Assembly: GCA_024710525.1 (NCBI GenBank)
Contig: JANJUP010000022.1
Span: forward strand, 64,001 to 128,000
From: Candidatus Rifleibacteriota bacterium
GTDB lineage: Bacteria > Muiribacteriota > Ozemobacteria > Ozemobacterales > Ozemobacteraceae
DNA: 64,000 bases
Direction of reading: 5' to 3'
Of the stretch, positions 4,729 through 61,114 are shown in pieces. The notes beneath the pieces were generated by a model. That model saw only the letters and a program-made list of their open reading frames with translations. It made no database searches and was not told where the DNA came from. Made by a program: the position numbers and the translations under genes. Every line of letters begins with the position of its first letter. Positions within the stretch are counted from its first letter, which is position 1.

Positions 4729-6003
4729 ATGTTTAGAAATATCATGCTGATCACTGCTGTGATGCTTCTGTCTCTTTCTGTTGCCGCCTTCGCTGAATTC
4801 CCAGAGCCTTACCGTGACCCGAATGCCGCTCTGCGCTACCTGATGGCAATGGGCCGTATGCCGCAGCTTACCGAAGATGAGGTGAAACTGCTGACCGATA
4901 TCAGTAGCGCAGAGGCATTTTCGGCATTGCCTGACTCGTTGAAGCGCAAAGTGGCTGAAGCCGGTTTCCAGAACATCTTTAACCAGCTTAAGGCGGCAGC
5001 CGCCTGCACAGAATGCAGTTTTGTGCCAGACAGCAAGTTCGAACCCCAGGATCTCATTCCCCCATACCGGGCGCTTCGCACTTTCGCCAGGTATGTGAAT
5101 GCCGGTGCCTGGCAGGTCATTTCCGGGGGAGACCACGAAAAGGGCGCACAATTGCTGGTATACGTGTTCAAATTTGGTGCCGATTCTGAAAAATACCAGC
5201 CGCTGATTGGTTACATGCTTGGTGTCGGTATCAGATACATTGCCCTGAATTCGATGAAAAATGTTCTTGCTGGCAATTACAAGGTAGAAGCGAAGAAAAT
5301 CATCACTGATTATCTCAAAGCCTTGCCGCGGCCAGCTTTTAACGCCAGAGACAGCCTGGTCTGGGAAAGAATTTATTTTGTTAAAACACTTGATATGCTT
5401 GCCAGCAGCACAGAAGGGGTTGTCGAACTGCTGAAGTCTGTCAGTGATGAGACAAAGCCGGTGGGTGAACAGTCGCTCAGCTGTGTTCCTTATCAGAGAA
5501 TTCTTTTGGGTGCCGTTGAAATGGCGCTGATGGATGGTCTGAAGTTTGAACCCGGAAAACCTGCCGCGGAAATAATTGGAGAACTGGTTAAGAAGCAGTA
5601 TCTGAAAGCGGCACCGGTTTGCCCTGACAAGGGTGAATACAAGATCGAATTCATCAAAGAAGACGATTTTAAAGTCAGCTGCAGCTGTGGTGCCGACCCC
5701 GAAAAATCTGTAGAGAAAAAGGAAGAGGTCAAACCGGCTATAAACCCTGAACTTGAAGCCAAAGCCAAAGAATACCTCTCTTCGGGCAGGCTTGCCAAAG
5801 ATGTTAAAGAAATTCATGAGTATTTCGACAAAGTCATGGCCTGCGATCCGCTCGAATCAGGCCTTGTCGAGAAGCTGAAAACGATGAAAAATGATTATGA
5901 AGGCCGTGACAACATTCTTATCAAGGCAATTCTGCCGGACTTCTCCAAAGTATACGAAAAGCAGTTCAGCCTTCAGGAAGCCATCGATGGTTTGATCAGG
6001 TAA
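4729..6003 (+). CDS. Secreted hypothetical protein
   Basis: AGGAG RBS then ATG at 4729; signal peptide MFRNIMLITAVMLLSLSVAAFA. The antisense ORF 4702..5817 is F-rich, low complexity, and judged spurious. Confidence 0.6.
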   Translation: MFRNIMLITAVMLLSLSVAAFAEFPEPYRDPNAALRYLMAMGRMPQLTEDEVKLLTDISSAEAFSALPDSLKRKVAEAGFQNIFNQLKAAAACTECSFVPDSKFEPQDLIPPYRALRTFARYVNAGAWQVISGGDHEKGAQLLVYVFKFGADSEKYQPLIGYMLGVGIRYIALNSMKNVLAGNYKVEAKKIITDYLKALPRPAFNARDSLVWERIYFVKTLDMLASSTEGVVELLKSVSDETKPVGEQSLSCVPYQRILLGAVEMALMDGLKFEPGKPAAEIIGELVKKQYLKAAPVCPDKGEYKIEFIKEDDFKVSCSCGADPEKSVEKKEEVKPAINPELEAKAKEYLSSGRLAKDVKEIHEYFDKVMACDPLESGLVEKLKTMKNDYEGRDNILIKAILPDFSKVYEKQFSLQEAIDGLIR

Positions 6004-6100
6004 AACAACTGATTTCGGCGTGATAACGCTCTGGAGCGAGAAAGCAGGGCGGGCGTTGAAAAGCACGCGGGCAGATAGATTCTGAAATGTCGCTTATAAA

Positions 6101-6131
6101 AAGACACCGGTTGAGTTCCGGTGTCTTTTTT
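6101..6131. terminator. Bidirectional rho-independent terminator between convergent genes
   Basis: Stem agacaccgg / ccggtgtct with loop ttgagtt, followed by ttttt. An A-run on the other side. Confidence 0.6.
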
Positions 6132-6157
6132 CATCTACGGCGTATTCGGTCGCATTC

Positions 6158-8077
6158 TCAGGTGCCGGAAAGAATCTTTCTGAAGAAGATCGCCTCTTTT
6201 TCGAGAGAATCGACGAGGTTGGCTTTCTGCCTGAATCCATGCGCTTCGGTGGGGTATTCGTAATATTCGTGCCGGATGTGTTTGCTCGCGAGAATTTCGG
6301 CCATTTCGCGTGAATTCTCGGGCGGCACGACCTTGTCTTCTGAACCCTGGAAGATAATCATCGGACTTTTGAGGTTAACGAGATGATTGATCGGCGACCG
6401 ATCTTCGAAAATGTGGCGATGCGTGCTCATGGGCCCGCCGAGAAGTCCCTCAAGGTAACGCGATTCGAATTTGTGGGTCAGATTCTGCAGGGTGACGAGA
6501 TTGCCGATGCCGAAATAACTGGCGCCGGTGGCAAACATCTCAGGAAACATCGTAAGCAGTCGTTGTACCGTATAGCCGCCGGCACTGCCGCCAGAAACCA
6601 CAGCTTTGTCACCGATCATGCGCTTTTCGCGCAGGTATTGCAGACCGTCTTTGACGTCGCTGATCTCAAGAACTCCCCATTCGCCAAGCAGTGCGTCACG
6701 ATAGGCCCTGCCAAAACCGGTTGAACCGCGATAGTTAACGTCGAAAATCGCATAGCCCTGGCTGGTCCAGAAGACATGCTCGCGGCTGAAACCGGCTCGT
6801 GCCAGGCTGGTCGGGCCGCCGTGCACGAGAACCCTTACCGGCGGGAGCTCCCCTTCGGGAGTTTTGTAATTGCTGTTTTTCGGGGGGTAGAAGTAACCGT
6901 GGCATAACTGGCCATCACTGGTTGGAAAGCTGATTTTTTCGGGGCTGCTGATGTCTGCAGCCGAAATATGGCATTCTGATGTGTGCCGTAGAATTTCGAG
7001 ACTGGCATTTTTCTTTATCAGGGCCAGCTGAGTTGGCCTGTCAGCGGGGGTTCCGGTCAGGGCTAGATTTTCGCCACATACGACTGGCTTCGATATCGAC
7101 AGAAACGGCGTCGGCAGTTCGGTTAAACTGCCGCTTTCAGCGTCAACCCAGGCCAGACCAGGCATTCCGTCGTTGAATGTCAGGGCAAGAATCCTGTCTG
7201 CAACGTGCAGAATATAGGCAATCTCATGCCCGGCCGCTGTTATGCGCTTTGTAGAGCCATTGTGCCAGGTGTAAATGTTGAAAAAATTATCGGTCGAATT
7301 CTGCCCGGCCCCTTTTCGGTCGATGCTGTAGCGTATTTCGCCGTTACTGTTGAAGGAAAAGTCGCTTATCGCTTCACTGTCTGAGCCGGCAATTCTGCAC
7401 AGGGCCTTCTGGTTCACTTCGCCGTCGGCAAAGGGAGAGCAACAGAGAACCGTTGAATCCCAGGGCATATAGGGGTGATTCCATTGCAGCCAGGCGATAT
7501 TTTTGCCGTCCGGCGAAAAAAACGGCTGTTTGTAAAAATCGGCACCGCACACCAGAATTTTGGGCTCCTGAATGCCAGGTTTTTGCAGGTCCAGAAGGCA
7601 GAGAGCGTTTTCTGGCTCATTGTGCCCGCCTTCAAGCTCAAAAGCTGCAACCAGCCAGCGGCCATCAGCAGACACGGCTGGCTGCATGAACTTCATCATC
7701 CGGCCGTCGGCGGCCTTTTCGGGGGTAATGGGGGCCGGAGTTTCGCTTTTACCGAAATCAAAGGCATAAAGGCGCTGATCAGAGAAGTTGGCGAATATAA
7801 CCCGGGTTTCAGTCGTGACGTAAGGCATGCCGCCGTATTCCATGACCCTGGTTCTCGCTGAAAAAGGCGCGGGCAGCAGTTCTTTGATTGTGCCGTCGGG
7901 AGTGCGCAGCATGATGACGCAGCGACCTTTCTCTTCGGGGCGCATTTCAACCCAGAACAGCCTGCCGGCCGCATCGCCGGAGAGAAATGAAAAATTCACG
8001 GTTGCCTGAAAGACTTCTTCGGCGCTTATTGCCGGTTTCCAGGTGAGATATGACGCTGTGACTGGTGCGCTGTGCAT
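6158..8077 (-). CDS. S9 family serine peptidase (prolyl oligopeptidase / acylaminoacyl-peptidase type), beta-propeller N-domain, cytoplasmic
   Basis: AAGGAGA RBS then ATG at 8077 (MHSAPVTAS...), 20 nt after the radical SAM stop. Nucleophile motif VVSGGSAGGYTVQ (GxSxGG). C-terminal Asp (QGSEDKVV) and His (TEAHGF) consistent with the S9 triad. No signal peptide. Confidence 0.8.
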   Translation of the reverse strand: MHSAPVTASYLTWKPAISAEEVFQATVNFSFLSGDAAGRLFWVEMRPEEKGRCVIMLRTPDGTIKELLPAPFSARTRVMEYGGMPYVTTETRVIFANFSDQRLYAFDFGKSETPAPITPEKAADGRMMKFMQPAVSADGRWLVAAFELEGGHNEPENALCLLDLQKPGIQEPKILVCGADFYKQPFFSPDGKNIAWLQWNHPYMPWDSTVLCCSPFADGEVNQKALCRIAGSDSEAISDFSFNSNGEIRYSIDRKGAGQNSTDNFFNIYTWHNGSTKRITAAGHEIAYILHVADRILALTFNDGMPGLAWVDAESGSLTELPTPFLSISKPVVCGENLALTGTPADRPTQLALIKKNASLEILRHTSECHISAADISSPEKISFPTSDGQLCHGYFYPPKNSNYKTPEGELPPVRVLVHGGPTSLARAGFSREHVFWTSQGYAIFDVNYRGSTGFGRAYRDALLGEWGVLEISDVKDGLQYLREKRMIGDKAVVSGGSAGGYTVQRLLTMFPEMFATGASYFGIGNLVTLQNLTHKFESRYLEGLLGGPMSTHRHIFEDRSPINHLVNLKSPMIIFQGSEDKVVPPENSREMAEILASKHIRHEYYEYPTEAHGFRQKANLVDSLEKEAIFFRKILSGT

Positions 8078-9256: not shown

Positions 9257-10567
9257 TCAAGAATTATTGAGGTTTTCGGCAGCCTGCTTTTCTCTCTGGA
9301 TACGGGCTCTGTTTGTCCAGGTGTGTGGCAGAAGCACGAGCATCAGCCAGCCGATCAGCATCAAAACGATAGCCAGACCAAATGCCGCCTGAAAAGCGGC
9401 TGTTTCTCTGGTGCCGTCAGGTGATACCCAGCCGATGATCAGGCCCATGACCCACATTCCGAGGCCGCCGCCGACGAAACCGGTGAAATTGTAGACGCCG
9501 AGGGCGGTGCCGGCCATCGAGGCCGGAAAACACTCGCGTGCAATGCCGAAACTGATCGAAAAGAAGCCGGCGCAGAAACCCATAACCGCGAGCAGCGGAA
9601 TCAGATAGCTCTGCATTGTTGAAGTGGCGAAAACCAGAGGTACCCAGCACAGCAGATAGCCGAACATTCCGGCTGTCAGAACCGTGTGGCGCCGCTGAAC
9701 CGATTTTCCGGCCAGAATGCCGGAGACGATTGCCCCGAGCATCAGGCCAAGGGCAAGCCAGGTCAGGGCATAGCCGACCGATGTGTCTGGCATCTGATAG
9801 ATGCGCTTGAGAAATGGGCCGGCCCAGAGGCCCTGAAAACTGATTATCGTGGTTTCGAAAGCGAAGAAGTAGAGAGTTACGGCCCAGAATCTTTTTGATT
9901 TGAGCATGCCGCGCAGGCCTGAACGCTCGCCCGGTTCCACTGTTTCGTCAGAGTCGTGGTGCTTTGCAGAACCGGCTTCTGGCCCACTTTCTTTTGGGCG
10001 TTCAGATTCTGGTGGCTGGTCTTTGACCACGAGCCAGACAAATATCACCAGAAGCAGGGTAATGACGCTGACGAGTTCCATCGTGGCCCGCCAGCCCCAG
10101 ACGCTTTTTATTACAGCCAGCGGCCATGTCGAACTCAGTGCGCCAAGGTTGCCTACTGCCAGCATCATGCCGGTCATAAATACAAAAGATTCGCCGCCAA
10201 ACCAGCAGCCCATAAGTCTGAGCGCCGGCACATAAACGCAGCCGACCCCGGCACCGACCAGCCAGCGCGATAGAACCGCCGTTTCGAATGAAGCCGCCTT
10301 GCCGAAAGCAAAGGCGCCGAGGCTTGCCAGCAGCAGAAACAGTGATATGGTCTTGCGGGCACCCCAGCGGTCTGAAAGGATGCCGACCGGTATCTGTACC
10401 GTTGCATAGCCAAGCAGATACATCGATGAGAGAAAACCGAGTGCTGCCGGTTCAAGGCCAAGGTCGGCGGTGAGGTCGCCGGCCATTACCGCAGTGCAGA
10501 ACCGATGAAACATGACAAAGAAATAGGCAATCGCCAGAACCCAGAATATGGCCCACTTTCTTGTCAT
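9257..10567 (-). CDS. Major facilitator superfamily (MFS) transporter, 12 predicted TM helices
   Basis: AAGGAAAG RBS then ATG at 10567. Hydrophobic throughout, with a central cytoplasmic loop. MFS-like motif GILSDRWGARKT (G-x3-D-R/K-x-G-R-K/R). Confidence 0.85.
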   Translation of the reverse strand: MTRKWAIFWVLAIAYFFVMFHRFCTAVMAGDLTADLGLEPAALGFLSSMYLLGYATVQIPVGILSDRWGARKTISLFLLLASLGAFAFGKAASFETAVLSRWLVGAGVGCVYVPALRLMGCWFGGESFVFMTGMMLAVGNLGALSSTWPLAVIKSVWGWRATMELVSVITLLLVIFVWLVVKDQPPESERPKESGPEAGSAKHHDSDETVEPGERSGLRGMLKSKRFWAVTLYFFAFETTIISFQGLWAGPFLKRIYQMPDTSVGYALTWLALGLMLGAIVSGILAGKSVQRRHTVLTAGMFGYLLCWVPLVFATSTMQSYLIPLLAVMGFCAGFFSISFGIARECFPASMAGTALGVYNFTGFVGGGLGMWVMGLIIGWVSPDGTRETAAFQAAFGLAIVLMLIGWLMLVLLPHTWTNRARIQREKQAAENLNNS

Positions 10568-10719
10568 TGCGGCTTTCCTTGTTAATGTTCTCTTTACTTA
10601 AGCTTGCCTGTAAAGAAGCGTTTATGCAACTATTTTCTGATAGGACTGCCCGGTTTTCCGCTTCGGGTATTTCTGTTACAATCGTCTGCATAATTTTGCT
10701 CAGACAGGGAAGAAATCTT

Positions 10720-11409
10720 ATGACCTTTTCATTATCGCCCAGAAAAAGTCTGAAAGTCGTGCTGTTGCTGGCAGTGCTTTTTCTCGTGCAGGCTGTTGAA
10801 CCTCAGCCATTGCAGGCAGATGATATCGAGAAACAGATGCGCGAACTGCTCGCTGAGGCTGGCCCTTTCCCTGAGGCGGTTGCCAGGCCGCGCGACCCTG
10901 TAAACAGTGAGCTGACGATTCGTGAAAGATTTAATCGTATCTGGAACAATTTTCTGGGCTTCAGGGTCACCTATGCGACCGCGAGAGGTAAGGCCTGCCA
11001 CGCAAACCAGCGGGTAATCGCCGGTGCGATTGAAATGTACAACATGGACAACGCAACGATGATGAAAACATTGCGGCACGACGACGCCGTTATGGCCTCG
11101 GGAGCGCTGGTCAGGGGCCTTTACCTTAAGAATGGGATTCGCCCGCCTGAATCCGACTGTGAATATTTCAGTTTTGGTGATCTGACAAAAAATGGCATAG
11201 TTTATTGCCGGCGACATGGCACGATTGAACCGTATTATAAAGCCATAGCAAAGGTTGCTGGTGTTAAAATGCCTGTCGATGAGCGGGCAGAAAATCTTCA
11301 GATCGCTTTGGCCGGCATGGTCGGTCTGATTCTGATCTCAATGGCGGTTCTGATCGTTTTGTTTTTCAGTCGCCGCCAGTCGTCAGAGGCATCAGACGCA
11401 GATAGATAG
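10720..11409 (+). CDS. Secreted protein with GspG-like pseudopilin globular motif and a C-terminal TM anchor
   Basis: Sec-type signal peptide MTFSLSPRKSLKVVLLLAVLFLVQA. KACHANQRVIAGAIEMYNMDNATMM resembles the T2SS GspG/PulG motif (..A.DMY.LDN..YP). C-terminal helix LAGMVGLILISMAVLIVLFF. Confidence 0.5.
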   Translation: MTFSLSPRKSLKVVLLLAVLFLVQAVEPQPLQADDIEKQMRELLAEAGPFPEAVARPRDPVNSELTIRERFNRIWNNFLGFRVTYATARGKACHANQRVIAGAIEMYNMDNATMMKTLRHDDAVMASGALVRGLYLKNGIRPPESDCEYFSFGDLTKNGIVYCRRHGTIEPYYKAIAKVAGVKMPVDERAENLQIALAGMVGLILISMAVLIVLFFSRRQSSEASDADR

Positions 11410-11514
11410 GCCTTTTTTGCCGGTTCTGTTTTTTGGCAGGTTTTATTTGAATCTGAGTGCCAAAAAAGGTTATAGTTAGAGCAATACATAGAAAGTTTCA
11501 AGTTCTGCAAAGTC

Positions 11515-12594
11515 ATGTCATGCTTTAAGCGGCAGTTAACCTGCGTTTGCCCGCGCAACAGCGGTTTCGTTTTTCCGCTGATTCTTTTTGCATCCCTGGC
11601 GGTAGGCCTGTTTATTCTGACGCTTACCCAGTATCAATCAGCGAATCGAGTCAAGCTTCAGCATCTCAACGACTACCAGGGTGCATTTAACATCGCCTGG
11701 TCGGCACTTGTCGAAGTGCTGGCCGACATTCAGGCGAAGCAGTGGAGCAACCGTTCTTTTAAATCCGGGCCAAAAGACAAGTCTGCCAGCCTGTTCGGCG
11801 GCAGTTACAATCTCAGGGTGGCTGACCATGATGTGGCGCAGTATCTGTTCAATGTTAAAGTCAGGGTGAGCTTTAAAAACAAAAATCACCTGTTCTACTG
11901 GCGCATGAAATACAACCCGAATTTGCTCGATTTTACCAATCTTTTCATACCTGTCTGCTATGATGACATGCTCGATGAGCCTGGTGCGGCGCCTGGCGAT
12001 ATCGATGCAATCGTCGATGATATGCTCGAAACCCGTGAAGAGAACCGTGAGAAGGCCGAAGAGATCGCCAAAGCCATCAAAGCGACGCCGACTCTTAAGG
12101 AGGCACTGCAAAAAATCGGCATCAAACCCGACAAAGTCAAGGATGCCGACAAGCCAAGACCAGCGCCCCCAACGGTGCCGACTGCGCCGACTCCGCTGAC
12201 GCTGAAAGATATCGCGGCCCTGGCTACCGGTGCTGACCCTGAAGTGGTCTTTGCAATCAAAGATTTTCATTTTGGTGGTGACGTCGCAGTGCTTACCGAA
12301 GAACAGAAAGACCTGCTCGACGCTATGGCTAAAATTCTTGCCGACCGGCCCGAGATTAAAATCGAGCTGCGTGGCCATACGACCGGTCTGGTTGGTACCG
12401 CCGAAAGCAATCTTGAATTCTCGATTCAGCGGGCACAGAACGTGGCCGACTATCTTATCAGTGTTGGTATTGCAGCTGAAAGGCTCACAGTTAAAGGTTT
12501 TGGTCGCGAAAAACCGCTCGCCAGCAACGACACCGAGGCCGGTCAGACGAAAAACCGCCGCGTCGAATTCGTTCTTTCATCCACATCAAGTTAG
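11515..12594 (+). CDS. OmpA/MotB-domain protein with N-terminal TM helix
   Basis: C-terminal IELRGHTTGLVGTAESNLEFSIQRAQNVADYLISVGIAAERLTVKGFGREKPLASNDTEAGQTKNRRVEFVL is a canonical OmpA-like peptidoglycan-binding domain. N-terminal hydrophobic helix. Confidence 0.75.
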   Translation: MSCFKRQLTCVCPRNSGFVFPLILFASLAVGLFILTLTQYQSANRVKLQHLNDYQGAFNIAWSALVEVLADIQAKQWSNRSFKSGPKDKSASLFGGSYNLRVADHDVAQYLFNVKVRVSFKNKNHLFYWRMKYNPNLLDFTNLFIPVCYDDMLDEPGAAPGDIDAIVDDMLETREENREKAEEIAKAIKATPTLKEALQKIGIKPDKVKDADKPRPAPPTVPTAPTPLTLKDIAALATGADPEVVFAIKDFHFGGDVAVLTEEQKDLLDAMAKILADRPEIKIELRGHTTGLVGTAESNLEFSIQRAQNVADYLISVGIAAERLTVKGFGREKPLASNDTEAGQTKNRRVEFVLSSTSS

Positions 12595-12626
12595 TTACAG
12601 CCGTAGCAGAGTTTGAGTTACCGACT

Positions 12627-13199
12627 ATGAAAAATCGATCTGACAGAAGTTCTTTAACGGCCGCAAGTAGCGGTTTTACGGTATTGGAACTCGTGGTTGT
12701 CGTCGGCATAATGGCTCTGCTGGCGGCAATGGTATTCGGCATGTTTTCTACGACCAGTTCCAACCAGCAGAAGGTTTCGACCGACATGCAGATGCAGGCA
12801 ATGATACTTAACTCGCAAAATCGCATCGTAAGAGCGGTCAGAGAAGGCATCGATTTTATTCTGCCCGAACTTGGTGGAGAGTCGGCTGCCCTCTTTTTTG
12901 CTGACAGTGAAAATAACATCAGGGTGCTCTATCAGCAGAAAGACGAAGAACTGTCAAAACGCACCGGCAAAACTTTGTACAAGCTCGTTCATCAAAAGGT
13001 TGAAACGAAAGGCTTTAATAGCAGCAGCCCGGCATCTGACCCGAAAATGTCCTCGACGGTTGCCGAGTATGTTAAAGACATCAAATTTCGCGTTTCAAGC
13101 GCCAATACGGTCAATGTTACCGCCAGTTTTGCGACCGAGCGCGCCGAATTTCAGACAATGTTCGAGATTGGCCTGCAGAATTCGGGAGTTGTTGAATGA
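12627..13199 (+). CDS. Prepilin-type N-terminal cleavage/methylation domain protein (pseudopilin)
   Basis: Class III signal: SSGFTVLELVVVVGIMALLAAMVF (G|FTVLE with E at +5). Confidence 0.7.
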   Translation: MKNRSDRSSLTAASSGFTVLELVVVVGIMALLAAMVFGMFSTTSSNQQKVSTDMQMQAMILNSQNRIVRAVREGIDFILPELGGESAALFFADSENNIRVLYQQKDEELSKRTGKTLYKLVHQKVETKGFNSSSPASDPKMSSTVAEYVKDIKFRVSSANTVNVTASFATERAEFQTMFEIGLQNSGVVE

Positions 13200-14473
13200 A
13201 CCAGCGAGCAAACCGTGGTATGACACTGCTTGAACTGCTGATCGGCTTTTTTCTGCTGGTTTCGGCCTCGATTATTTTTTTTCAGGCCATGCACAGCTTT
13301 AAAAAAGAAACCACCTTTACTTCGGAAAATTTCCTCGCGGCTTCTCTGACTGAAAAAGTGCTCGAGCAATGCTACCAGGAGGCCGACCTGAACCCGCATG
13401 GCCTGCAGGCAATCGGCCTGGCCGATGCCGACGGCGCGCTCTACCCGTTTTCGACCTTTGTGACTGACAGAGAGACAATTTTCTTTTCGAACCCGGGCAT
13501 AACCGACACCGAAACCCCAAACCTGCACAAACTTCTCAAGGAAAACTTCAATCTCAAGGTCTCCGGAAAAAAAACTACCGGATTCTATGAAATCACCGCC
13601 GGTTTTAATTGGAAAGCTGCTTCGGGCAAGGGCGGTTCGCTCACATCAACGAGAATTCTTTCGTTTACCGGCGAAAAGGAAGTGCTGACAACCTTCGCTC
13701 TATCAGATGCCGAGGTGAAAAACCGGCTGGTAAAAGATGTGTTCAATGCCCCGGGTGCCGCTCTTGGCAGCAAGGTCAGCAGCGCCGGTGCCGAAAAACT
13801 GCTGCTTGATATTGGCCATATTTACTACACCTGCAACGACTGGCTTAACTCAGCTGAATTTAAAGACCGCTACCAGAAGGCTCGCAGCCTGGAGATTGTC
13901 TCGTCACCTGCATCTGAAGATTATGAAAAGTGTACCCGCATGTATTTTGATCTCGCCAGAGACATGCTGCATCTTATGATGAGTCTCAAAGGTCATGCCG
14001 AAGAGGCAAACAAGCAGATCAGCTTTCTTGCTTCCGTTCCGAAACCCGAGAAATACATCATTGAGAGCCGCATCGAGCGTGGCGGCCTGTTTTATCGTCA
14101 GCTGCGCCGCCTGCTTTTCAATTGTCTTTTCAGGGTTGCTGAACGTTACGAGCAGCAGAGCAAAAATGCCCGATCGCCGAAACACCAGCGCCAGCTGATT
14201 ATACGGCTTTTCAATATCAATCGCATTCTTTTTGCCAACCGCAGTTTCAGTGACGAAGTGCCGGCCGCCGAGATCGAAAGCCGTTATCGCAACTTCATCA
14301 CAAGAATGCAGACAGCTTTCAGCGAGTCCGACCCTTCGATTTTTCGCCTCGCCGACCAGGAAAAGACTTTTATCACCGCCGGCAATCTCGAAGACCGCTT
14401 TTTCATGCTGAAATTGACCGGCGAGCTTTTTGCCACCATCGATAAATTTCTGACGGTTCTCGATCCGGCCTGA
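13196..14473 (+). CDS. Large prepilin-type N-terminal domain protein (425 aa pseudopilin-like)
   Basis: Start overlaps the upstream stop (ATGA). N-terminus RGMTLLELLIGFFLLVSASIIFF (G|MTLLE). Confidence 0.65.
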   Translation: MNQRANRGMTLLELLIGFFLLVSASIIFFQAMHSFKKETTFTSENFLAASLTEKVLEQCYQEADLNPHGLQAIGLADADGALYPFSTFVTDRETIFFSNPGITDTETPNLHKLLKENFNLKVSGKKTTGFYEITAGFNWKAASGKGGSLTSTRILSFTGEKEVLTTFALSDAEVKNRLVKDVFNAPGAALGSKVSSAGAEKLLLDIGHIYYTCNDWLNSAEFKDRYQKARSLEIVSSPASEDYEKCTRMYFDLARDMLHLMMSLKGHAEEANKQISFLASVPKPEKYIIESRIERGGLFYRQLRRLLFNCLFRVAERYEQQSKNARSPKHQRQLIIRLFNINRILFANRSFSDEVPAAEIESRYRNFITRMQTAFSESDPSIFRLADQEKTFITAGNLEDRFFMLKLTGELFATIDKFLTVLDPA

Positions 14474-14591
14474 GTTTTCTGCCAGACAAAGATACCCGCA
14501 TCCCCGCCGGGCTAAAGCATTTCGCAGGTTGATGCGGCTATTGTCGGTATCAATAGTTCGCAGAATATCTGAAATGCGGCAATCAAGACGC

Positions 14592-16214
14592 TCAGAAGAG
14601 AAAGTCAGTGGTCAGAAAGCTCGAAAGGTCGTCTTTAAGGATTTTCGTGATCAGCTGCTTGTTGTCGTCACTGTCTTTGGCAGCGACCAGGGTTCTGATC
14701 GAGAAAACCCGAAGCGCGTCAGAGACCGAAAGGGTGCCTTCGGCTGAATCCTTGCGGCCGGTGAACGGGAAGGTGTCGGGGCCACGCTGGCACTGGCTGT
14801 TGATATTGACGCGGCAGACCTGGTTAACCAGCGGGTCGATCAGTGAAGCCATCTGTTTCGCATCTTTTCCGAAGAGGCTCACTTGTTGGCCGTAGTCTGA
14901 CTCGACGACGTAGTCGATCGCTTCTTCGATCCGATTATAGGCTGCGACCGGTACGACCGGGCCGAACTGTTCTTCGCGATACAGTTTCATTTTATCGTTC
15001 ACCGGGTAGACAACGGCGGGAAAGAACAGCGAATCCGAGAAAACGCCGCCCGAAGGGTTGACGATTCTGGCGCCGTTTGCCTGGGCATCTTTGATAAGAT
15101 CGGTAAGGCGCTCTGCTTTGCCGGGCTCAGCGAGCGGAGTAATCTGGGCGCCCTTTTCCCAGGGCAGGTTGATCTGCAGCTTTTCTACTTCGGCCGAGAA
15201 TTTTGCCAGAAACACATCGGCAATTGAAGAATGCACAAAGATCATTTTCAGGGCGGTGCAGCGCTGGCCATTGAATGACAGACTGCCGAGAATGCATTCT
15301 TTTACCGCCAGGTCGATATCGGCATCTGGAAGAATGATGCAGGGGTTCTTGGCATCAAGACCGAGCACGCAGCGCAGGCGGTGCGGTTTCGGGTGTGCTC
15401 TGCGGATAACGTCTGAGACACGGCTGGTGCCGATAAAAGCCAATACATCGACTTTGCCTGAAGCCATCATCGGGGTGATTACGGTTTGCCCACTGCCATA
15501 AACCGTATTGATTACCCCTTTCGGAAATGAATCGCGAAAAGCTTCGAGCAGCGGCTGAAAAAGCAGCACGCCGTGTTTCGGCGGCTTGAAAACGACAGTG
15601 TTGCCCATGATCAGGGCAGGGATCAGCGTCGTAAAAGTTTCATTGAGCGGGTAATTGAACGGGCCCATGCAGAGTACGACGCCAAGGGGCGCCCGTCTGA
15701 TCTGGCCGATGATCTTCTGTTGGATGGTAAAGCGCGATGAAGTTCGGTCGAGCTCTTTCAGAGCTTCGACTGTGTCGCGGATATAGTCGATGGTGCGGTC
15801 GAATTCCTTCTGGGCATCGGCAAGGTTTTTGCAGATTTCCCACATCAGCAGGTTAACGACGCGGTCACGGCAGCCGAGCATGCGTTCGACAAAATTTTGA
15901 ACGTGCCTGATGCGTTCACCAACCGACATTGTCGGCCATTTTCCCCGACCGTTGTCATAGGCCGCAGCCGCTGCATTCAAAGCCTCGGTGGCGGCCTGTT
16001 CAGACATGCTTGGCACGCTGCCGAGTTTTACCTGTTCAGGAGCGCTGCCGTTTCTGATTCTGATCGGCGAACTGATTTCCTGCATCGGGCCCTGCCACTG
16101 CCGGATTTCTCCATCGATCAGGTAATCGCGCTGTTCGATCCTTGGCGCTGTGAATTCAGCCGGAATATTCGCATCCTGCGGGAAAAGGGCCGCAAGGGTT
16201 TCGCTTTTCAACAT
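14592..16214 (-). CDS. Aldehyde dehydrogenase family protein (NAD(P)+-dependent)
   Basis: Catalytic Cys motif SFNGQRCTAL and Glu motif LGLDAKNP. Rossmann GxxxxG region. 540 aa. Confidence 0.8.
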   Translation of the reverse strand: MLKSETLAALFPQDANIPAEFTAPRIEQRDYLIDGEIRQWQGPMQEISSPIRIRNGSAPEQVKLGSVPSMSEQAATEALNAAAAAYDNGRGKWPTMSVGERIRHVQNFVERMLGCRDRVVNLLMWEICKNLADAQKEFDRTIDYIRDTVEALKELDRTSSRFTIQQKIIGQIRRAPLGVVLCMGPFNYPLNETFTTLIPALIMGNTVVFKPPKHGVLLFQPLLEAFRDSFPKGVINTVYGSGQTVITPMMASGKVDVLAFIGTSRVSDVIRRAHPKPHRLRCVLGLDAKNPCIILPDADIDLAVKECILGSLSFNGQRCTALKMIFVHSSIADVFLAKFSAEVEKLQINLPWEKGAQITPLAEPGKAERLTDLIKDAQANGARIVNPSGGVFSDSLFFPAVVYPVNDKMKLYREEQFGPVVPVAAYNRIEEAIDYVVESDYGQQVSLFGKDAKQMASLIDPLVNQVCRVNINSQCQRGPDTFPFTGRKDSAEGTLSVSDALRVFSIRTLVAAKDSDDNKQLITKILKDDLSSFLTTDFLF

Positions 16215-16404
16215 CGGGTTCCTCCATTTTTGTCAGCGACAGCTGTAATCTTTAAGTCTGGTTTTTGCGATTTTAACTGACCGCCGGGTGCCAGTCCAAT
16301 TTATTCGCAGCGACCCGTTCAAAGCTTGATTTTGTAACCTGAAACCATGTAGTCATCCTTGCCGAGGTGGTGAATGGTCTTCGGTTCAGAAATTTCCGGG
16401 TCGA

Positions 16405-17037
16405 TTATTTTGTTTTCGGATTGAGTTCTTTGACCAGATCAGACCGCTTCGGCCATGGCTGAAAACCGTATCTGGGGCCGGGGCATGCTTCATTGATATA
16501 TCTGATAAGATTGTTAGGCCTGGGGAAATGTGCCATCGGCACAATTTGCGAGCCGACGAAGGCGTTGAGTGCCTCCGAGTCTTCGAGGCCGTCGTCACGC
16601 GCCGCTTCAAGGCTTGCTTCCAGTTCCTGTGGACTGAACAGAGGTTTTTCCCATGGCTGCTGCTCACCTTCAGCGACCAGCCACATAAAATCTCCCCATT
16701 GCAGGTTTCTGACCAGACTGCCGTTGCTCCAGGCAGCATAAATTCCTGAGGTGAGACCTCCGTCGATCAGATAAAAAGCTATTACCTCGCCAACCTGTGC
16801 CGACAGCTCGGCAAGTTCTTTTGCAATGGCCGGATCTGAAGCTTCAACCCACATTGGCGGGTAATCGGTGCGGTTCCAGCGGTCAACGACCGCAAACTGA
16901 TGCACGGCCGGGTCGCCACCGAGAACCTTTAACGGACTGAACTCTTTCCCGGCGGCTCTGGCCTTTTTGATTGCCTCTTCAAGGGCTTCGATTCCTCCGT
17001 CAGGAAATTTTGCGTAAACTGCTCCGTCACAATCCAT
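16405..17037 (-). CDS. Hypothetical protein
   Basis: ORF with ATG at 17037 (MDCDGAVYAKFPDGG...). No recognisable motif. Confidence 0.45.
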   Translation of the reverse strand: MDCDGAVYAKFPDGGIEALEEAIKKARAAGKEFSPLKVLGGDPAVHQFAVVDRWNRTDYPPMWVEASDPAIAKELAELSAQVGEVIAFYLIDGGLTSGIYAAWSNGSLVRNLQWGDFMWLVAEGEQQPWEKPLFSPQELEASLEAARDDGLEDSEALNAFVGSQIVPMAHFPRPNNLIRYINEACPGPRYGFQPWPKRSDLVKELNPKTK

Positions 17038-17294
17038 ATTTCTGTCCTCCTGTGGCGTCTGCCGCCCTGTTTCTGTTTTTATGCAGCGCCACCAATTTAA
17101 TACCAATTTAGCTTACCTTTTCTGCCTCGACAAGAAAAATGAGCATCCAACCAGTCTGGTTCCTTGTCGAAAATGGATTCGAGGACAGGCCGCCGAAGCA
17201 GGGAGCTTGAATCTTTATTGCCGAGCCTGCACTGCAATAGAAAAAAAACTGCAACTCAAATGCAGTAATGGTCCGGAAGAATGATCTGCAAAGT

Positions 17295-17332
17295 TTGACA
17301 ATTACAATTAAATTGAATACAATTTAATTGTA
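17295..17332 (+). promoter_or_regulatory. Sigma-70 promoter (TTGACA-17-TACAAT) overlapped by an OhrR-type inverted-repeat operator
   Basis: TTGACA at 17295-17300, 17-bp spacer, TACAAT at 17318-17323. Inverted repeat tacaattaaattg (17303-17315) / caatttaattgta (17320-17332). Followed by a TAAGGAG RBS and the gpx ATG at 17353. Confidence 0.7.
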
Positions 17333-17352
17333 ATAAATCGTAAGGAGCTGCT

Positions 17353-17922
17353 ATGAATATTTATGAATTCACGGTTAAAGATATACATGAAAACCCGGTA
17401 TCGCTGCGTGACTATCAGGGGCGGGTGCTGCTGATTGTCAACACTGCCACCGGCTGCGGGCTGACCCCGCAGTATGAAGGCCTTGAAAAGCTTTATAAAA
17501 AATATCATGACCAGGGATTCGAAATTCTCGATTTTCCGTGCAATCAGTTTCTTAACCAGGCTCCAGGCACCGGCGAAGAGATTGCCAGTTTCTGTCAGCT
17601 CAAATACGGCGTGTCGTTCCGCACTTTCGGTAAAGTAGAGGTAAACGGCGACAAAGCCGATCCGCTGTATGTTTACCTCAAACAGCAGGCGCCGGCCGAT
17701 GTTGAAAATGCCGATGCCGGAGCATTCAGGCAGATTCTTGTAAAACTCGCTCAGACGGTTGCCGGCAGCGGTATCAAATGGAACTTTACCAAATTTCTGA
17801 TCGACCGCCAGGGCAGAGTGGTTACCCGGTTCGCTCCGACGGTTAAGCCCGAAGAACTTGAAGCTGCCATTGTTAAATTGCTGCCGCAGGAGAAAAAATG
17901 TGAAAAAGCCGGCGAAAGATAA
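17353..17922 (+). CDS. gpx: Glutathione peroxidase (Cys-type, BsaA-like)
   Basis: LLIVNTATGCGLTPQY...FEILDFPCNQF and WNFTKFLIDRQG are GPx family signatures with a peroxidatic Cys. Confidence 0.9.
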   Translation: MNIYEFTVKDIHENPVSLRDYQGRVLLIVNTATGCGLTPQYEGLEKLYKKYHDQGFEILDFPCNQFLNQAPGTGEEIASFCQLKYGVSFRTFGKVEVNGDKADPLYVYLKQQAPADVENADAGAFRQILVKLAQTVAGSGIKWNFTKFLIDRQGRVVTRFAPTVKPEELEAAIVKLLPQEKKCEKAGER

Positions 17923-18385
17923 ATTTGCCGCATTAAGGCTTGATAATCAGCTGTGTTTTCCGCTTTATGCTGCTTCGAGGCTGGTGATCAAACTTTATAA
18001 GCCTTTTCTGGATCGGCATGGGCTGACTTATACTCAGTATATTGCGATGATGGCACTCTGGGAAAAGGATAATGTCGCGGTAAACGAACTGGGAGAGCGC
18101 CTTTTTCTCGATTCCGGCACCCTGACGCCGCTTTTGAAAAAACTCGAAACTCTTGGTTTTATCAAAAGAGAGCGCGATGCCGCCGACGAACGCACAGTGC
18201 GCATTCAACTGACCGGCCAGGGAAAAACGCTGCAGAAAACCATGTGCGATGTTCCCCAGCAGATGGCCGCCTGCGTTCATCTCGGCAGAGAAGAAGCCGG
18301 CAACCTGCATGAACTTCTTCACAATCTCATCAGAAATCTGAGCAGCACTGACGGCCGCAAAAACAGCCGGCCCGGTATTTTCTGA
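17897..18385 (+). CDS. ohrR: OhrR-type MarR-family organic hydroperoxide sensor/repressor (2-Cys type)
   Basis: LDNQLCFPLYAASRLVIKLYKPFLDRHGLTYTQYIAMMALWE...LFLDSGTLTPLLKKLETLGFIKRERDAADERTVRIQLT is closely similar to Bacillus subtilis OhrR, including the sensing Cys in the NQLCF motif. A second Cys is near the C-terminus. Start uncertain: GTG 17897 with AGGAG RBS, or ATG 17858. Confidence 0.85.
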   Translation, partial: NVKKPAKDKFAALRLDNQLCFPLYAASRLVIKLYKPFLDRHGLTYTQYIAMMALWEKDNVAVNELGERLFLDSGTLTPLLKKLETLGFIKRERDAADERTVRIQLTGQGKTLQKTMCDVPQQMAACVHLGREEAGNLHELLHNLIRNLSSTDGRKNSRPGIF

Positions 18386-20019
18386 TGCGGGCGGCACTGA
18401 TTTTTCCGCCACAGTGGGATCCGCGGCAGCCGCCGCTGGCGCCGTCAATTCTCGCTGGCACCATGCGACGTGCCGGTGCCGATACCCGGGTATTCGATCT
18501 GAATGTCGCTTTGTACCGCCATCTGCTTCTATCACACGAGCCAGGAGGAATCGGGAGTTTTCTGCTGCAGAAACTGCTCGATCCGAAGAATCTGGCCGAT
18601 GCACAAAGCTATCTGCGTATCAGTCAGGAAGCCCAGAAAATTTTCGATTCAGAGTTCGATCCGGCAGGCCGGGCGCGCTTGTTCTGGGATGCCTGCGGCG
18701 GACTGCCATCGGTTGATTCGTCTGCAGGCTGGAAGATAGCTGCAGAGAAACCGGAAAAGCTGCCGTTCATCGGGCATCTTGGCAAAGAACTGGCCGAAAT
18801 ACTGAGCTGGTCATCCGACTTCATTGGTTTTTCGATAATATCAGATACGCAGTTGCCGGCAGCGTTGGCTCTGGCGGCATTTATGCGTAAACGTCTGCCG
18901 GCTGCGAAGATTGTTTTTGGTGGTGACGCTGTTACTTACCGGCGCCGCCTTCTCACTAGTCAGGGCTGGCTTGGCTCGATAATCGATGCGGTCTGTCTTG
19001 GTGATGGCGAGCCGTTTGTCACAGCCGCTGCCAAGGGCATGAGTCCTGCCGGTTCGCCGAATTCTCTCAATTGGCAGGCTTCCGAGGGTAGCTGCAGCGG
19101 GCAGCAGTCTCTGCATGATTTTTCAGATATAAACACAGCTGCCTTTTCGGCTCTGCCGCTGCATGACTATCTGACGCCGCATCTCGTAATGCCGGTAGAA
19201 ACAGCCAGGGGCTGCCCATGGGGCAGATGTGCATTCTGCATCCATCCGGTGCGGGCGGCGAGCGGCCGACCATTGTACCGGCCGCGTTCCATGGCTGCCG
19301 TCACCGAAGAAATTGAAACCCTTTTTGCGGCCGGGCATCGTCGGTTCTTTATTGTTGATGAAGCTTTGCCGCCTGCGCGTCTGCTTGAGTTGGCAGAAAT
19401 TTTTGCCGCTCTGCCTGAACCGGTTTTCTGGATCGGTTATGCCCGCCTCGACGCCGGGCACACTCTTGAAGGCTTTTTGCGGGCACGCGCTTCGGGGTGT
19501 CTGAAACTCTTTATTGGTCTTGAGACAGGATCAGATCGTATTCTTGCCAGATTCAACAAGGGTGTCGATCGGGCGCAGACCCGCCGGGTGCTGCTCGACG
19601 CTGCTGCTGCCGGCCTCGCGGTGCATACATTTCTGATGACTGGGTTTCCGGGCGAAGATGCGTCTGATCGGCAGGCGACCCTCGATCTGCTTGCCGATGT
19701 CTGGCCGGCCTTTGCCCCATTCGGAGTATCGTTCGATCTGTTCGCGCTGACCGGCGAACTCGAAACTGAAATGGCTGCCGATCCAGCAGCCTTCGGCTGG
19801 GAAGGCCCGAAATTTGACGGGCGTAACGATCTTGCCTGGCAGTTTCCGCTGCTTACGGGTCCAGCTGCGGCCGAAACGCTGGCCGAATTTAGAGCCAGCC
19901 TGCACAGCCTTGCCGACAGGGTTCTGGGCAGAGAGTTTGGTCTGCGTCACGCCGCCCTGGCCCAGGATTCCCTGCATTTGCTGCTGCTGGAAGCAAAAAC
20001 CAGTCTGCGTCGGCCATAA
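18385..20019 (+). CDS. B12-binding-domain radical SAM protein (class B-like), 544 aa
   Basis: ATG overlaps the ohrR stop (TGATG). N-terminal cobalamin-binding-like fold (ALIFPPQW...PPLAPSILAG). Radical SAM cluster Cys ARGCPWGRCAFC, which is Cx4Cx2C rather than the usual Cx3Cx2C. Confidence 0.7.
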   Translation: MRAALIFPPQWDPRQPPLAPSILAGTMRRAGADTRVFDLNVALYRHLLLSHEPGGIGSFLLQKLLDPKNLADAQSYLRISQEAQKIFDSEFDPAGRARLFWDACGGLPSVDSSAGWKIAAEKPEKLPFIGHLGKELAEILSWSSDFIGFSIISDTQLPAALALAAFMRKRLPAAKIVFGGDAVTYRRRLLTSQGWLGSIIDAVCLGDGEPFVTAAAKGMSPAGSPNSLNWQASEGSCSGQQSLHDFSDINTAAFSALPLHDYLTPHLVMPVETARGCPWGRCAFCIHPVRAASGRPLYRPRSMAAVTEEIETLFAAGHRRFFIVDEALPPARLLELAEIFAALPEPVFWIGYARLDAGHTLEGFLRARASGCLKLFIGLETGSDRILARFNKGVDRAQTRRVLLDAAAAGLAVHTFLMTGFPGEDASDRQATLDLLADVWPAFAPFGVSFDLFALTGELETEMAADPAAFGWEGPKFDGRNDLAWQFPLLTGPAAAETLAEFRASLHSLADRVLGREFGLRHAALAQDSLHLLLLEAKTSLRRP

Positions 20020-20092
20020 TGGCTGTTACAGACTGGTTCTTGAGGAATCGAAATGAAATCAGAGCATCAATCGGTTCAAATAAGCGAGCTTT

Positions 20093-20866
20093 TCACTCCT
20101 GATTGCGGATTTTCCGGTAAGGTTCCATGTCGATGCCGGCCGCTTTGCACGCAGATTCAAACACGTTCGCCTGGTCTCCGAGAACCATTTTTTCCCTGAT
20201 GGCAACGGCTTCCATCGCGTTGGCATCGGTTTCGTGGCCATTGGCGCGCCAGACCTGTTTGATCTGCTGTATGAGGGCGATTTTGCCGGCTTCGTCGAGG
20301 AGCTGCCAGTCGAAAATATCTTTCGTCACAAGGTTTTTGACGTGCTCCTTGTCGAGTTTCGGGGCGTTGTCTGCCTTTTTGGCAGGTTCTGCCGCCGGTG
20401 CTTCAGAGCCTTCGAGCGGGTCGGTAATTGATTCGCAGATCATCGGGCCGGTACTGGCGTCATCGGCCGGCGAAATGCACATGAATACCGGTCCTGAGGG
20501 CTCTTTATATTTGAACAGGATGCCTCTGGCATCGTCAGAAACCACGGTAGTCAGCGGCGATTGCAGCTGCAAGCCCTTGACCTGCTCAAAGCTTACCTGT
20601 GGCTGGCACACGGAAAACACATTCGTGACCTTGTTATTTTCGTAGCCAAGCATTCCCATCATCAGAAAATCGGGAGAGTCTGAGATGAGCCAGGTGTCGA
20701 GCTCGCCTGCATCAGCTGGTTTGCCGAGCATTTTGTGAGCTTCTTCTCTGGAAACCCCAATAAAGCTGGTTTCGGTCCAGAATTTTGCCGTAATTGCTTC
20801 GGCACTGCCGGCTGCGATAATTAACAGAACGAAGACGAGAATGATAATACTGTTGCGGTTTTTCAT
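20093..20866 (-). CDS. Secreted hypothetical protein
   Basis: Signal peptide MKNRNSIIILVFVLLIIAAGSAEA. Confidence 0.55.
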   Translation of the reverse strand: MKNRNSIIILVFVLLIIAAGSAEAITAKFWTETSFIGVSREEAHKMLGKPADAGELDTWLISDSPDFLMMGMLGYENNKVTNVFSVCQPQVSFEQVKGLQLQSPLTTVVSDDARGILFKYKEPSGPVFMCISPADDASTGPMICESITDPLEGSEAPAAEPAKKADNAPKLDKEHVKNLVTKDIFDWQLLDEAGKIALIQQIKQVWRANGHETDANAMEAVAIREKMVLGDQANVFESACKAAGIDMEPYRKIRNQE

Positions 20867-60748: not shown

Positions 60749-60754
60749 GTTCAG

Positions 60755-61114
60755 TGGAGGCGGCGGGAATCGAACCCGCGTCCGAAAAGGCTCACAGACA
60801 CCGTCTACCATTATGTCCTGCGTTTAATTGTTTAAGACTTTCGTAACCCACAGGCAGGTCTCTACTCATCCGATCCGTCTGGAAAATCTCGACTTGCTAC
60901 CCCAGTGGCCCGGTATCAAGCCCAGCCGGTTTTGTCTACGGTCGTCTCAGTGCTTACCGGCGGAATCAGCTGAGGGACCGTCACAGCAAATTAGGCTGCG
61001 AGTGCCAGTTCTTCGTTGGCAGTTAAGTTTTGATCGATTTTATAACGAGGCCCTTCGATCAACCTCGAATGGCAGGTGGATGCTCACGCTCCCCGTCGAA
61101 ACCAGGTCGCCCCC
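60755..61114 (-). ncRNA. ssrA: tmRNA (ssrA); tag reading frame encodes ANEELALAA, stop at 60991-60993
   Basis: 5' end GGGGGCGACCTGGTTTCGACGGGG (tRNA-like acceptor / tmRNA 5' consensus). 3' end GGACGCGGGTTCGATTCCCGCCGCCTCCA (T-arm and acceptor). Internal ORF ending ...GCAGCC TAA = LALAA stop. Confidence 0.85.

Follow-up and report, generated by a model that had tools for sequence, protein, structure and literature searches.

The stretch of DNA considered here, referred to as the window, comprises 64,000 nucleotides of a Candidatus Rifleibacteriota contig (JANJUP010000022.1, assembly GCA_024710525.1) and harbors three successive plus-strand open reading frames (ORFs). These are gpx (17353–17922), encoding a peroxidase of the glutathione peroxidase family, ohrR (17900–18385), encoding a predicted organic-hydroperoxide sensor, and a gene for a radical S-adenosylmethionine protein with a B12-type domain (rSAM, 18385–20019). 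A preliminary description of this DNA had presented them as a serially overlapped operon, and its coordinates agree with those found here. The ohrR start lies inside the 3′ end of gpx, as described, giving an overlap of 23 nt when counted from the GTG at 17900. The ohrR stop and the rSAM ATG do read TGATG, although the overlap amounts to a single shared base, A18385. The identical overlapped layout is present in an independent assembly (locus L089, SRR27868858), and for this reason it is no assembly artefact; the three ORFs and both overlaps are confirmed as real.

The first gene, gpx, is preceded by a Shine-Dalgarno sequence (AAGGAG, 17342–17347) and encodes a Cys-type peroxidase of 189 amino acids (aa). 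Its product aligns over the full length of PF00255 (E = 1.7e-39) and contains the NxAxxCG motif, within which the predicted peroxidatic residue Cys35 (NTATGCGLT) is encoded by TGC and is a cysteine, not a selenocysteine. Another cysteine, Cys81, sits within SFCQLKYGVSF, at a position which we take to be that of the resolving Cys of thioredoxin-dependent CysGPx enzymes, and judging by its sequence the product is probably thioredoxin-dependent. It scores under the NCBIfam equivalog cut-offs of both the BtuE-type model (NF007900, 194.6 bits against 270) and Gpx7 (TIGR02540, 116.6 against 207.3). In comparison with relatives, the ratio of non-synonymous to synonymous substitution rates (dN/dS) is 0.03–0.17.

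The second gene, ohrR, is predicted to encode a MarR-family organic-hydroperoxide sensor and repressor of 161 aa, terminating at a TGA at 18383–18385. Its frame is open from a TTG at 17858, while the likely start is the GTG at 17900, which is situated 6 nt past an AGGAG (17889–17893) and matches the start picked by gene callers in relatives. The protein contains a MarR-type winged helix-turn-helix domain (PF01047, E = 2.8e-14; PF22381, E = 1.4e-20), and its best matches in the Protein Data Bank (PDB), with E-values between 1e-34 and 1e-31, are OhrR of Bacillus subtilis (1z91, E = 1.9e-34) and of Xanthomonas (2pfb/2pex). The sensing cysteine of these regulators, C15 in B. subtilis and C22 in Xanthomonas, is housed in an xNQLCF motif; its counterpart is Cys19, in LDNQLCFPLYA, a stretch matched in the alignment by LENQL(S)FLLYA in the C15S mutant structure 1z91 and by LDNQLCFALYS in 2pfb. 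Two further cysteines, C116 and C125, are present, the latter aligning one position after C127 of Xanthomonas, and the protein may be a member of the 2-Cys class. The top NCBIfam match is OhrR itself (NF052638), at 159.5 bits under a cut-off of 200, the model being Vibrio-type and drawn from one lineage. Beyond the genus of the window, the homologues most similar to this OhrR belong to Clostridia, at no more than 66% identity, and a lateral transfer of gpx-ohrR from Firmicutes may have taken place.

Upstream of gpx lies a promoter (17295–17323, plus strand) consisting of a −35 box TTGACA (17295–17300), a 17-nt spacer and a −10 box TACAAT (17318–17323). It matches 11 of 12 consensus positions and is the sole plus-strand promoter-like site returned by a consensus scan of 16900–20400. 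Overlapping its spacer, its −10 box and the probable transcription start is a predicted OhrR operator (17303–17332) of two tandem 15-bp sites of the TACAATT-N-AATTGTA type, enclosed in a perfect 15-nt inverted repeat (17301–17315 and 17320–17334). The 30-bp core, TACAATTAAATTGAATACAATTTAATTGTA, is identical at 28 of 30 positions, with two mismatches, to TACAATTAAATTGTATACAATTAAATTGTA, which served in vitro as the ohrA operator of B. subtilis (PMC2651793). No second site of this operator type exists in the window, where chance would yield 0; four genomes of the window's genus share the promoter-operator block at 100% identity, while the flank further upstream is unalignable. The claim that an OhrR-controlled promoter precedes these genes is thus well matched by what the sequence contains. 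Somewhat further upstream, at 17231–17266, lies a hairpin (ACTGCAACTCAAATGCAGT) that follows an A-run on the plus strand and is hence terminator-like on the minus strand; no minus-strand gene lies to its right to be terminated, and the hairpin may be left over from an earlier gene arrangement.

Two characterised systems resemble this arrangement closely. OhrR and the ohrA operator of B. subtilis (PDB 1z91, 1z9c) share with it the MarR fold, an N-terminal sensing Cys in xNQLCF and a tandem TACAATT-N-AATTGTA operator overlapping the promoter. Here, in contrast, the regulated peroxidase is Gpx instead of an OsmC-type OhrA, the regulator gene is part of the same operon, downstream of the peroxidase, and the OhrR of the window has an 11-residue, non-native C-terminal tail. 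The second system is the gpx-ospR operon of Pseudomonas aeruginosa (PA2826-PA2825), which is autoregulated, has organic and lipid hydroperoxides as its specific inducers, and is governed by an operator with an AATT-N-AATT core (PMC4999210). There too gpx is followed by the gene of an OhrR-family repressor under one operator-controlled promoter; the differences are the phylum, an operator of the B. subtilis type in place of GCAATT-N-AATTGC / AATTCAA-N-TTGAATT, and a third, unrelated gene fused downstream. A further ohrR-gpx pair is present in the clostridial genome of Anaeromicropila herbilytica. The view that OhrR normally controls ohrA is consequently too narrow, given OspR/gpx (PMC4999210) and the ohrR-gpx pairs of Clostridia. 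By its sequence, gpx-ohrR appears to be a canonical module of the already known OhrR/OspR type.

The third gene encodes a 544-aa protein with a radical SAM core (PF04055, E = 9.7e-14) and a B12-binding domain that is recognised marginally (PF02310, 32.6 bits against a cut-off of 32.1); no Shine-Dalgarno sequence precedes it in the window. Its cluster-binding motif is CPWGRCAFC (nt 19213–19239), a Cx4Cx2C arrangement of C277, C282 and C285, and these cysteines are invariant in 33 orthologues. The spacing is indeed atypical, as had been pointed out; it is not peculiar to this protein, being found also in distant paralogues of 600–870 aa with at most 30% identity, and because such distant relatives carry it, it is a trait of a wider clade. 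The family has in addition a conserved N-terminal FPPQWDPR motif and a C-terminal D..HL motif. Around 70 homologue clusters were found at identities of at least 34%, nearly all from metagenome-assembled genomes (MAGs) of Riflebacteria / Ozemobacteraceae, after which identity falls to 30% or less; the family is represented in about 25 species of Riflebacteria. Purifying selection acts on the gene in all three states of the ohrR/rSAM junction described below (dN/dS 0.11–0.27). One orthologue, in locus L025 (6001–7625), is split over two frames, with residues 1–138 at 6001–6414 and 139–538 at 6426–7625; the corresponding database protein (P0034) comprises 406 aa only, and the split represents either a frameshifted pseudogene or an error in MAG assembly.

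Structure prediction supports a class-B-like, two-domain fold for this protein. The AlphaFold2 model has a predicted local distance difference test score (pLDDT) of 91.6, and its top Foldseek matches are OxsB, MgmA, TsrM and AprD4 (E-values 1e-16 to 1e-13, template modelling scores 0.52–0.64, 12–17% identity), with superposition on OxsB, TsrM and MgmA extending across both domains. These enzymes likewise combine an N-terminal Rossmann-like B12-type domain with a radical SAM partial TIM barrel. They differ from the window's protein in having Cx3Cx2C where it has Cx4Cx2C, MgmA aligning with a one-residue gap, while its FPPQWDPR and D..HL motifs are its own and biosynthetic gene neighbours are missing. 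AprD4 shares this fold but works without B12, and B12 chemistry can therefore not be deduced from the fold alone. Most likely, the activity would be a B12-dependent methylation or another radical modification. Searches of the PDB by sequence and fold returned only generic class-B enzymes, with profile matches to 9ccb and 5ul2, and did not point to a substrate. Placement in a curated family failed likewise: all 23 NCBIfam matches fall far under their cut-offs, the best being TIGR03975 (84.6 bits against 281.85), a family of radical SAM C-methyltransferases that mature ribosomally synthesised and post-translationally modified peptides (RiPPs). This match has also the longest aligned span, from residue 4; the window's protein is about 150 aa shorter than the 700-aa relatives. 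Neither in the window nor at any of 27 orthologue loci was a precursor peptide, YcaO or other RiPP gene found as a neighbour of rSAM. No cobalamin riboswitch or other RNA element was found in the window, where the only Rfam family at gathering score is tmRNA (RF00023, 166.5 bits; 60752–61114, minus strand), and a literature search found nothing on radical SAM in Riflebacteria. Among the distant paralogues, a 702-aa protein of Streptomyces sp. NPDC048604 (L030, 6001–12303; 30% identical) is encoded directly upstream of genes for YcaO, TfuA and a metallo-beta-lactamase-fold protein, with an NB-ARC/TPR regulator further upstream. From its gene content, that locus looks like a thioamide-type RiPP cluster with a Cx4Cx2C B12-rSAM.

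The distribution of the linkage was followed in an orthologue scan with one genome per species, which yielded the 27 rSAM loci mentioned above; neighbours were identified by tblastn and ORF clustering, and three further loci (L080, L081 and L089) came from look-ups in metagenome assemblies. In these three, gpx and ohrR stand upstream of the rSAM gene; within the scan they do so only in L001, L022 and L025, whose rSAM proteins are 81–84% identical. The arrangement is confined to the window's own genus. In L002 (77% identity), in L082 (71%) and in over 20 additional species the rSAM gene has other neighbours and gpx-ohrR is absent. The co-occurrence of the three genes, which the preliminary description had proposed for checking, is therefore kept within the genus and missing from more than 20 other orthologue-bearing species. 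Elsewhere the neighbours include a major facilitator superfamily transporter, RecQ, a histidine kinase, an HD-GYP protein and Hcp, with no common theme, and an attempt to derive the function of the rSAM protein from its gene neighbourhood revealed no conserved partner across the 27 orthologue loci. The operator follows the same boundary: among 89 fetched loci, CAATT-N-AATTG cores are present only upstream of gpx in this genus and of one clostridial ohrR, and none was found upstream of rSAM orthologues that are without gpx-ohrR. The gpx-ohrR pair itself holds together in every relative that has it, including where 7 kb separate it from the rSAM gene.

In the L003–L006 subclade, and confined to it, a small conserved ORF stands directly upstream of the rSAM gene. 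It encodes approximately 58 aa (MAEKRR... to ...KVELEEGDRVSV(L/M)(L/V)*), resembles DUF3006 by eye, and in L004–L006 its stop abuts the rSAM ATG (TGAATG).

An aldehyde dehydrogenase gene (aldh) marks the other border of the region. In L019/L020 it is directly divergent from the rSAM gene, while in the window the same gene is located upstream of gpx, as an insertion of gpx-ohrR between the two would predict. Judged from its sequence content in several relatives, the whole interval between aldh and rSAM appears to behave as a variable region. Between aldh and gpx the window contains a 233-aa ORF without assigned family (16405–17106, minus strand), L081 an intact flavin reductase gene, L080 two flavin-reductase fragments and a 228-aa ORF, and L088/L022 nothing.

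The junction between ohrR and the rSAM gene occurs in three states. In one, found in L001, L022, L025 and L081, OhrR has 151 aa and is followed by a spacer of 100–280 nt that is unalignable between species. In another, found in L088 (GCA_054685995.1, contig BAAFTJ010000024.1), OhrR again has 151 aa, and a 7.3-kb type I restriction-modification island (10457–17985) is situated between it and the rSAM gene. The island contains hsdR, hsdM, rhuM, hsdS, an AAA_15 fragment and an ORF of 75–77 aa; its right-hand end is present also in L078/L079 (L078 1–3931), with an rSAM protein 90% identical. In the remaining state, that of the window, L080 and L089, an OhrR of 161 aa abuts the rSAM gene. The last 33–37 nt or so upstream of the rSAM ATG are common to the island-bearing and the abutting states.

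Comparison of these states accounts for the overlap. In relatives, the native OhrR of 151 aa ends ...ACT GGC TGA. The 8-mer CTGGCTGA is present at both ends of the island in L088, at 10450–10457 by the ohrR end and at 17940–17947 on the right, and may be a target duplication or a recombination scar. Joining the two copies gives ...CACTGGCTGAATGACGGTCACAAAAAC..., where the window reads ...CACTGACGGCCGCAAAAAC...; the window is thus what L088 would read without its island, less 8 nt (GGCTGAAT), and the bases lost include the ohrR stop. As a result OhrR reads on for 11 codons through what was the rSAM 5′ leader, adding the tail DGRKNSRPGIF before its new stop (18350–18385, with the deletion junction at about 18349/18350). 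In L078/L088 the unrelated ORF of 75–77 aa enters the same leader and gains the same ...KNSRPGIF* ending, and it follows that TGATG belongs to the leader and did not evolve as a device for coupling. Between the window and L080, synonymous divergence (dS) amounts to 0.03–0.04 in gpx and ohrR and 0.21 in the rSAM gene, a mosaic pattern that suggests a recent recombination event whose breakpoint lay where ohrR and rSAM meet. Neither a spacer nor a recognisable terminator or plus-strand promoter-like site separates ohrR from rSAM in the window. In the spacer-bearing relatives no terminator is recognisable after ohrR, scans being at or near chance expectation, and there is one weak promoter-like site (9/12), in L001 only.

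From these observations, the locus is likely to consist of two unrelated units lying side by side, a self-contained gpx-ohrR defence module and an orphan rSAM gene whose role is independent of peroxide stress. By homology and by the identity of the operator, reduced OhrR dimers would bind the tandem operator over the −10 box of the near-consensus, sigma-70-type promoter and repress transcription. Organic or lipid hydroperoxides would oxidise Cys19 and release OhrR, upon which Gpx would be made along with more OhrR, in autoregulation. In an ancestor of the genus, gpx-ohrR would have landed in the variable region between the aldehyde dehydrogenase and rSAM genes, and in the window's lineage the 8-nt deletion would later have taken the ohrR stop and left a TGA sharing a base with the rSAM ATG. 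In this strain the rSAM transcript probably results, as a side effect, from read-through that begins at the OhrR-controlled promoter, and its translation from termination-reinitiation. Expression driven by OhrR, as had been proposed, is in that respect plausible, read-through and translational coupling included; it looks incidental, and we judge it to be a by-product of the deletion, not a selected regulon.

Several points weigh against the side-by-side reading. Adjacency of gpx, ohrR and rSAM in the same orientation has been kept in several species-level lineages of the genus, whose rSAM proteins are 81–97% identical, and at least two of these lineages show abutment; selection for co-expression in this genus may have contributed. 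In the spacer-bearing relatives too, the rSAM gene might be read through from the gpx promoter. The order of insertion, island gain or loss and deletion was reconstructed from few genomes, without a species tree, and the promoter scan relied on a sigma-70 consensus from which promoters of Riflebacteria may depart. In base composition gpx-ohrR does not stand out as foreign (GC content at third codon positions 0.54 against 0.56), a measure that is not discriminating here.

The preliminary description had favoured a functional peroxide-stress operon. In such a model the OhrR regulon would have taken in a B12-rSAM enzyme for the repair or modification of lipids, cofactors or proteins damaged by peroxide. 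Its appeal is evident from the window, where nothing intervenes between ohrR and an rSAM gene that is without a Shine-Dalgarno sequence of its own and may depend on coupling to ohrR; the shared orientation in several species speaks for it as well, and the abutted allele is common, the cluster of 161-aa OhrR proteins (P0103) having 21 member sequences. We nevertheless regard such an operon as unlikely. The linkage is absent from the more than 20 other species that have an orthologue, no OhrR box is found near rSAM elsewhere, and in a 90%-identical relative the restriction-modification island parts the genes with neither of them lost. Spacers are not conserved, so that the junction appears unconstrained, and the overlap itself is a by-product of the 8-nt deletion. 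An Fe-S/cobalamin enzyme, presumably labile to O2 and peroxide, would moreover be an implausible effector under oxidant stress. Slightly more doubtful still is a proposal in which the rSAM gene has been captured by the OhrR promoter in this genus, most strongly in the window's lineage with its deleted ohrR stop, is induced by organic hydroperoxides and aids the oxidative-stress response, for example by repairing or re-modifying a damaged target. As a separate matter, the Riflebacteria-wide orphan family, with its FPPQWDPR N-terminus, its Cx4Cx2C motif and its lack of conserved partners, may catalyse an undescribed reaction. If true, the capture would give the first rSAM member of an OhrR regulon; consistent with the statement in the preliminary description, a literature search found no described OhrR regulon containing a B12-rSAM.

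A different possibility, rather improbable but the least so of the alternatives, is that the rSAM gene of the window is driven independently of OhrR by a weak or non-canonical promoter of its own within the 3′ part of ohrR. Orthologues are evidently expressed in many upstream contexts, including behind the restriction-modification island, and uncharacterised Riflebacteria promoters could escape a sigma-70 scan. That scan found no plus-strand promoter-like site within 17324–20400, however, the window has no counterpart to a TATAAA-like element that L022/L025 carry about 30 nt before the rSAM ATG, and the lack of a Shine-Dalgarno sequence speaks against independent expression too. Pairing of the MarR gene with rSAM as a dedicated regulator and enzyme, with gpx as a passenger, was considered because the ‘radical SAM mobile pair system’ (TIGR04472) is among the weak matches of the MarR protein (E = 1.4e-10). 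Here score and synteny effectively refute the idea, leaving it a negligible probability: the match reaches 41.3 of the 240 bits required, characterised OhrRs are far closer to the protein, the operator is located upstream of gpx instead of the rSAM gene, and gpx-ohrR remains a pair with rSAM 7 kb away.

The side-by-side arrangement carries a caution, in that a stop/start overlap in a single genome, which looks like strong evidence of a functional operon, was here made by an 8-nt deletion at a rearrangement-prone junction. The work also documents, in a phylum that is anaerobic and uncultured, a gpx-ohrR module with a textbook OhrR operator. The rSAM proteins, for their part, constitute an orphan, well-conserved, class-B-like family, mainly of Riflebacteria, which is now delineated and whose function is worth determining on its own terms.

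Two minor observations concern the surroundings of the locus. The assembly GCA_054685995.1 (L084/L088), whose OhrR is labelled ‘Erysipelotrichia bacterium’ by one source, contains a contig syntenic with the window (aldh, gpx, ohrR and rSAM) with proteins 87–98% identical, and its taxonomic label or binning is probably wrong. The window also contains a 425-aa ORF (13196–14473, plus strand) with a prepilin-type N-terminus, MTLLELLIGFFLL, which relatives keep beside their aldehyde dehydrogenase gene (cluster c6).

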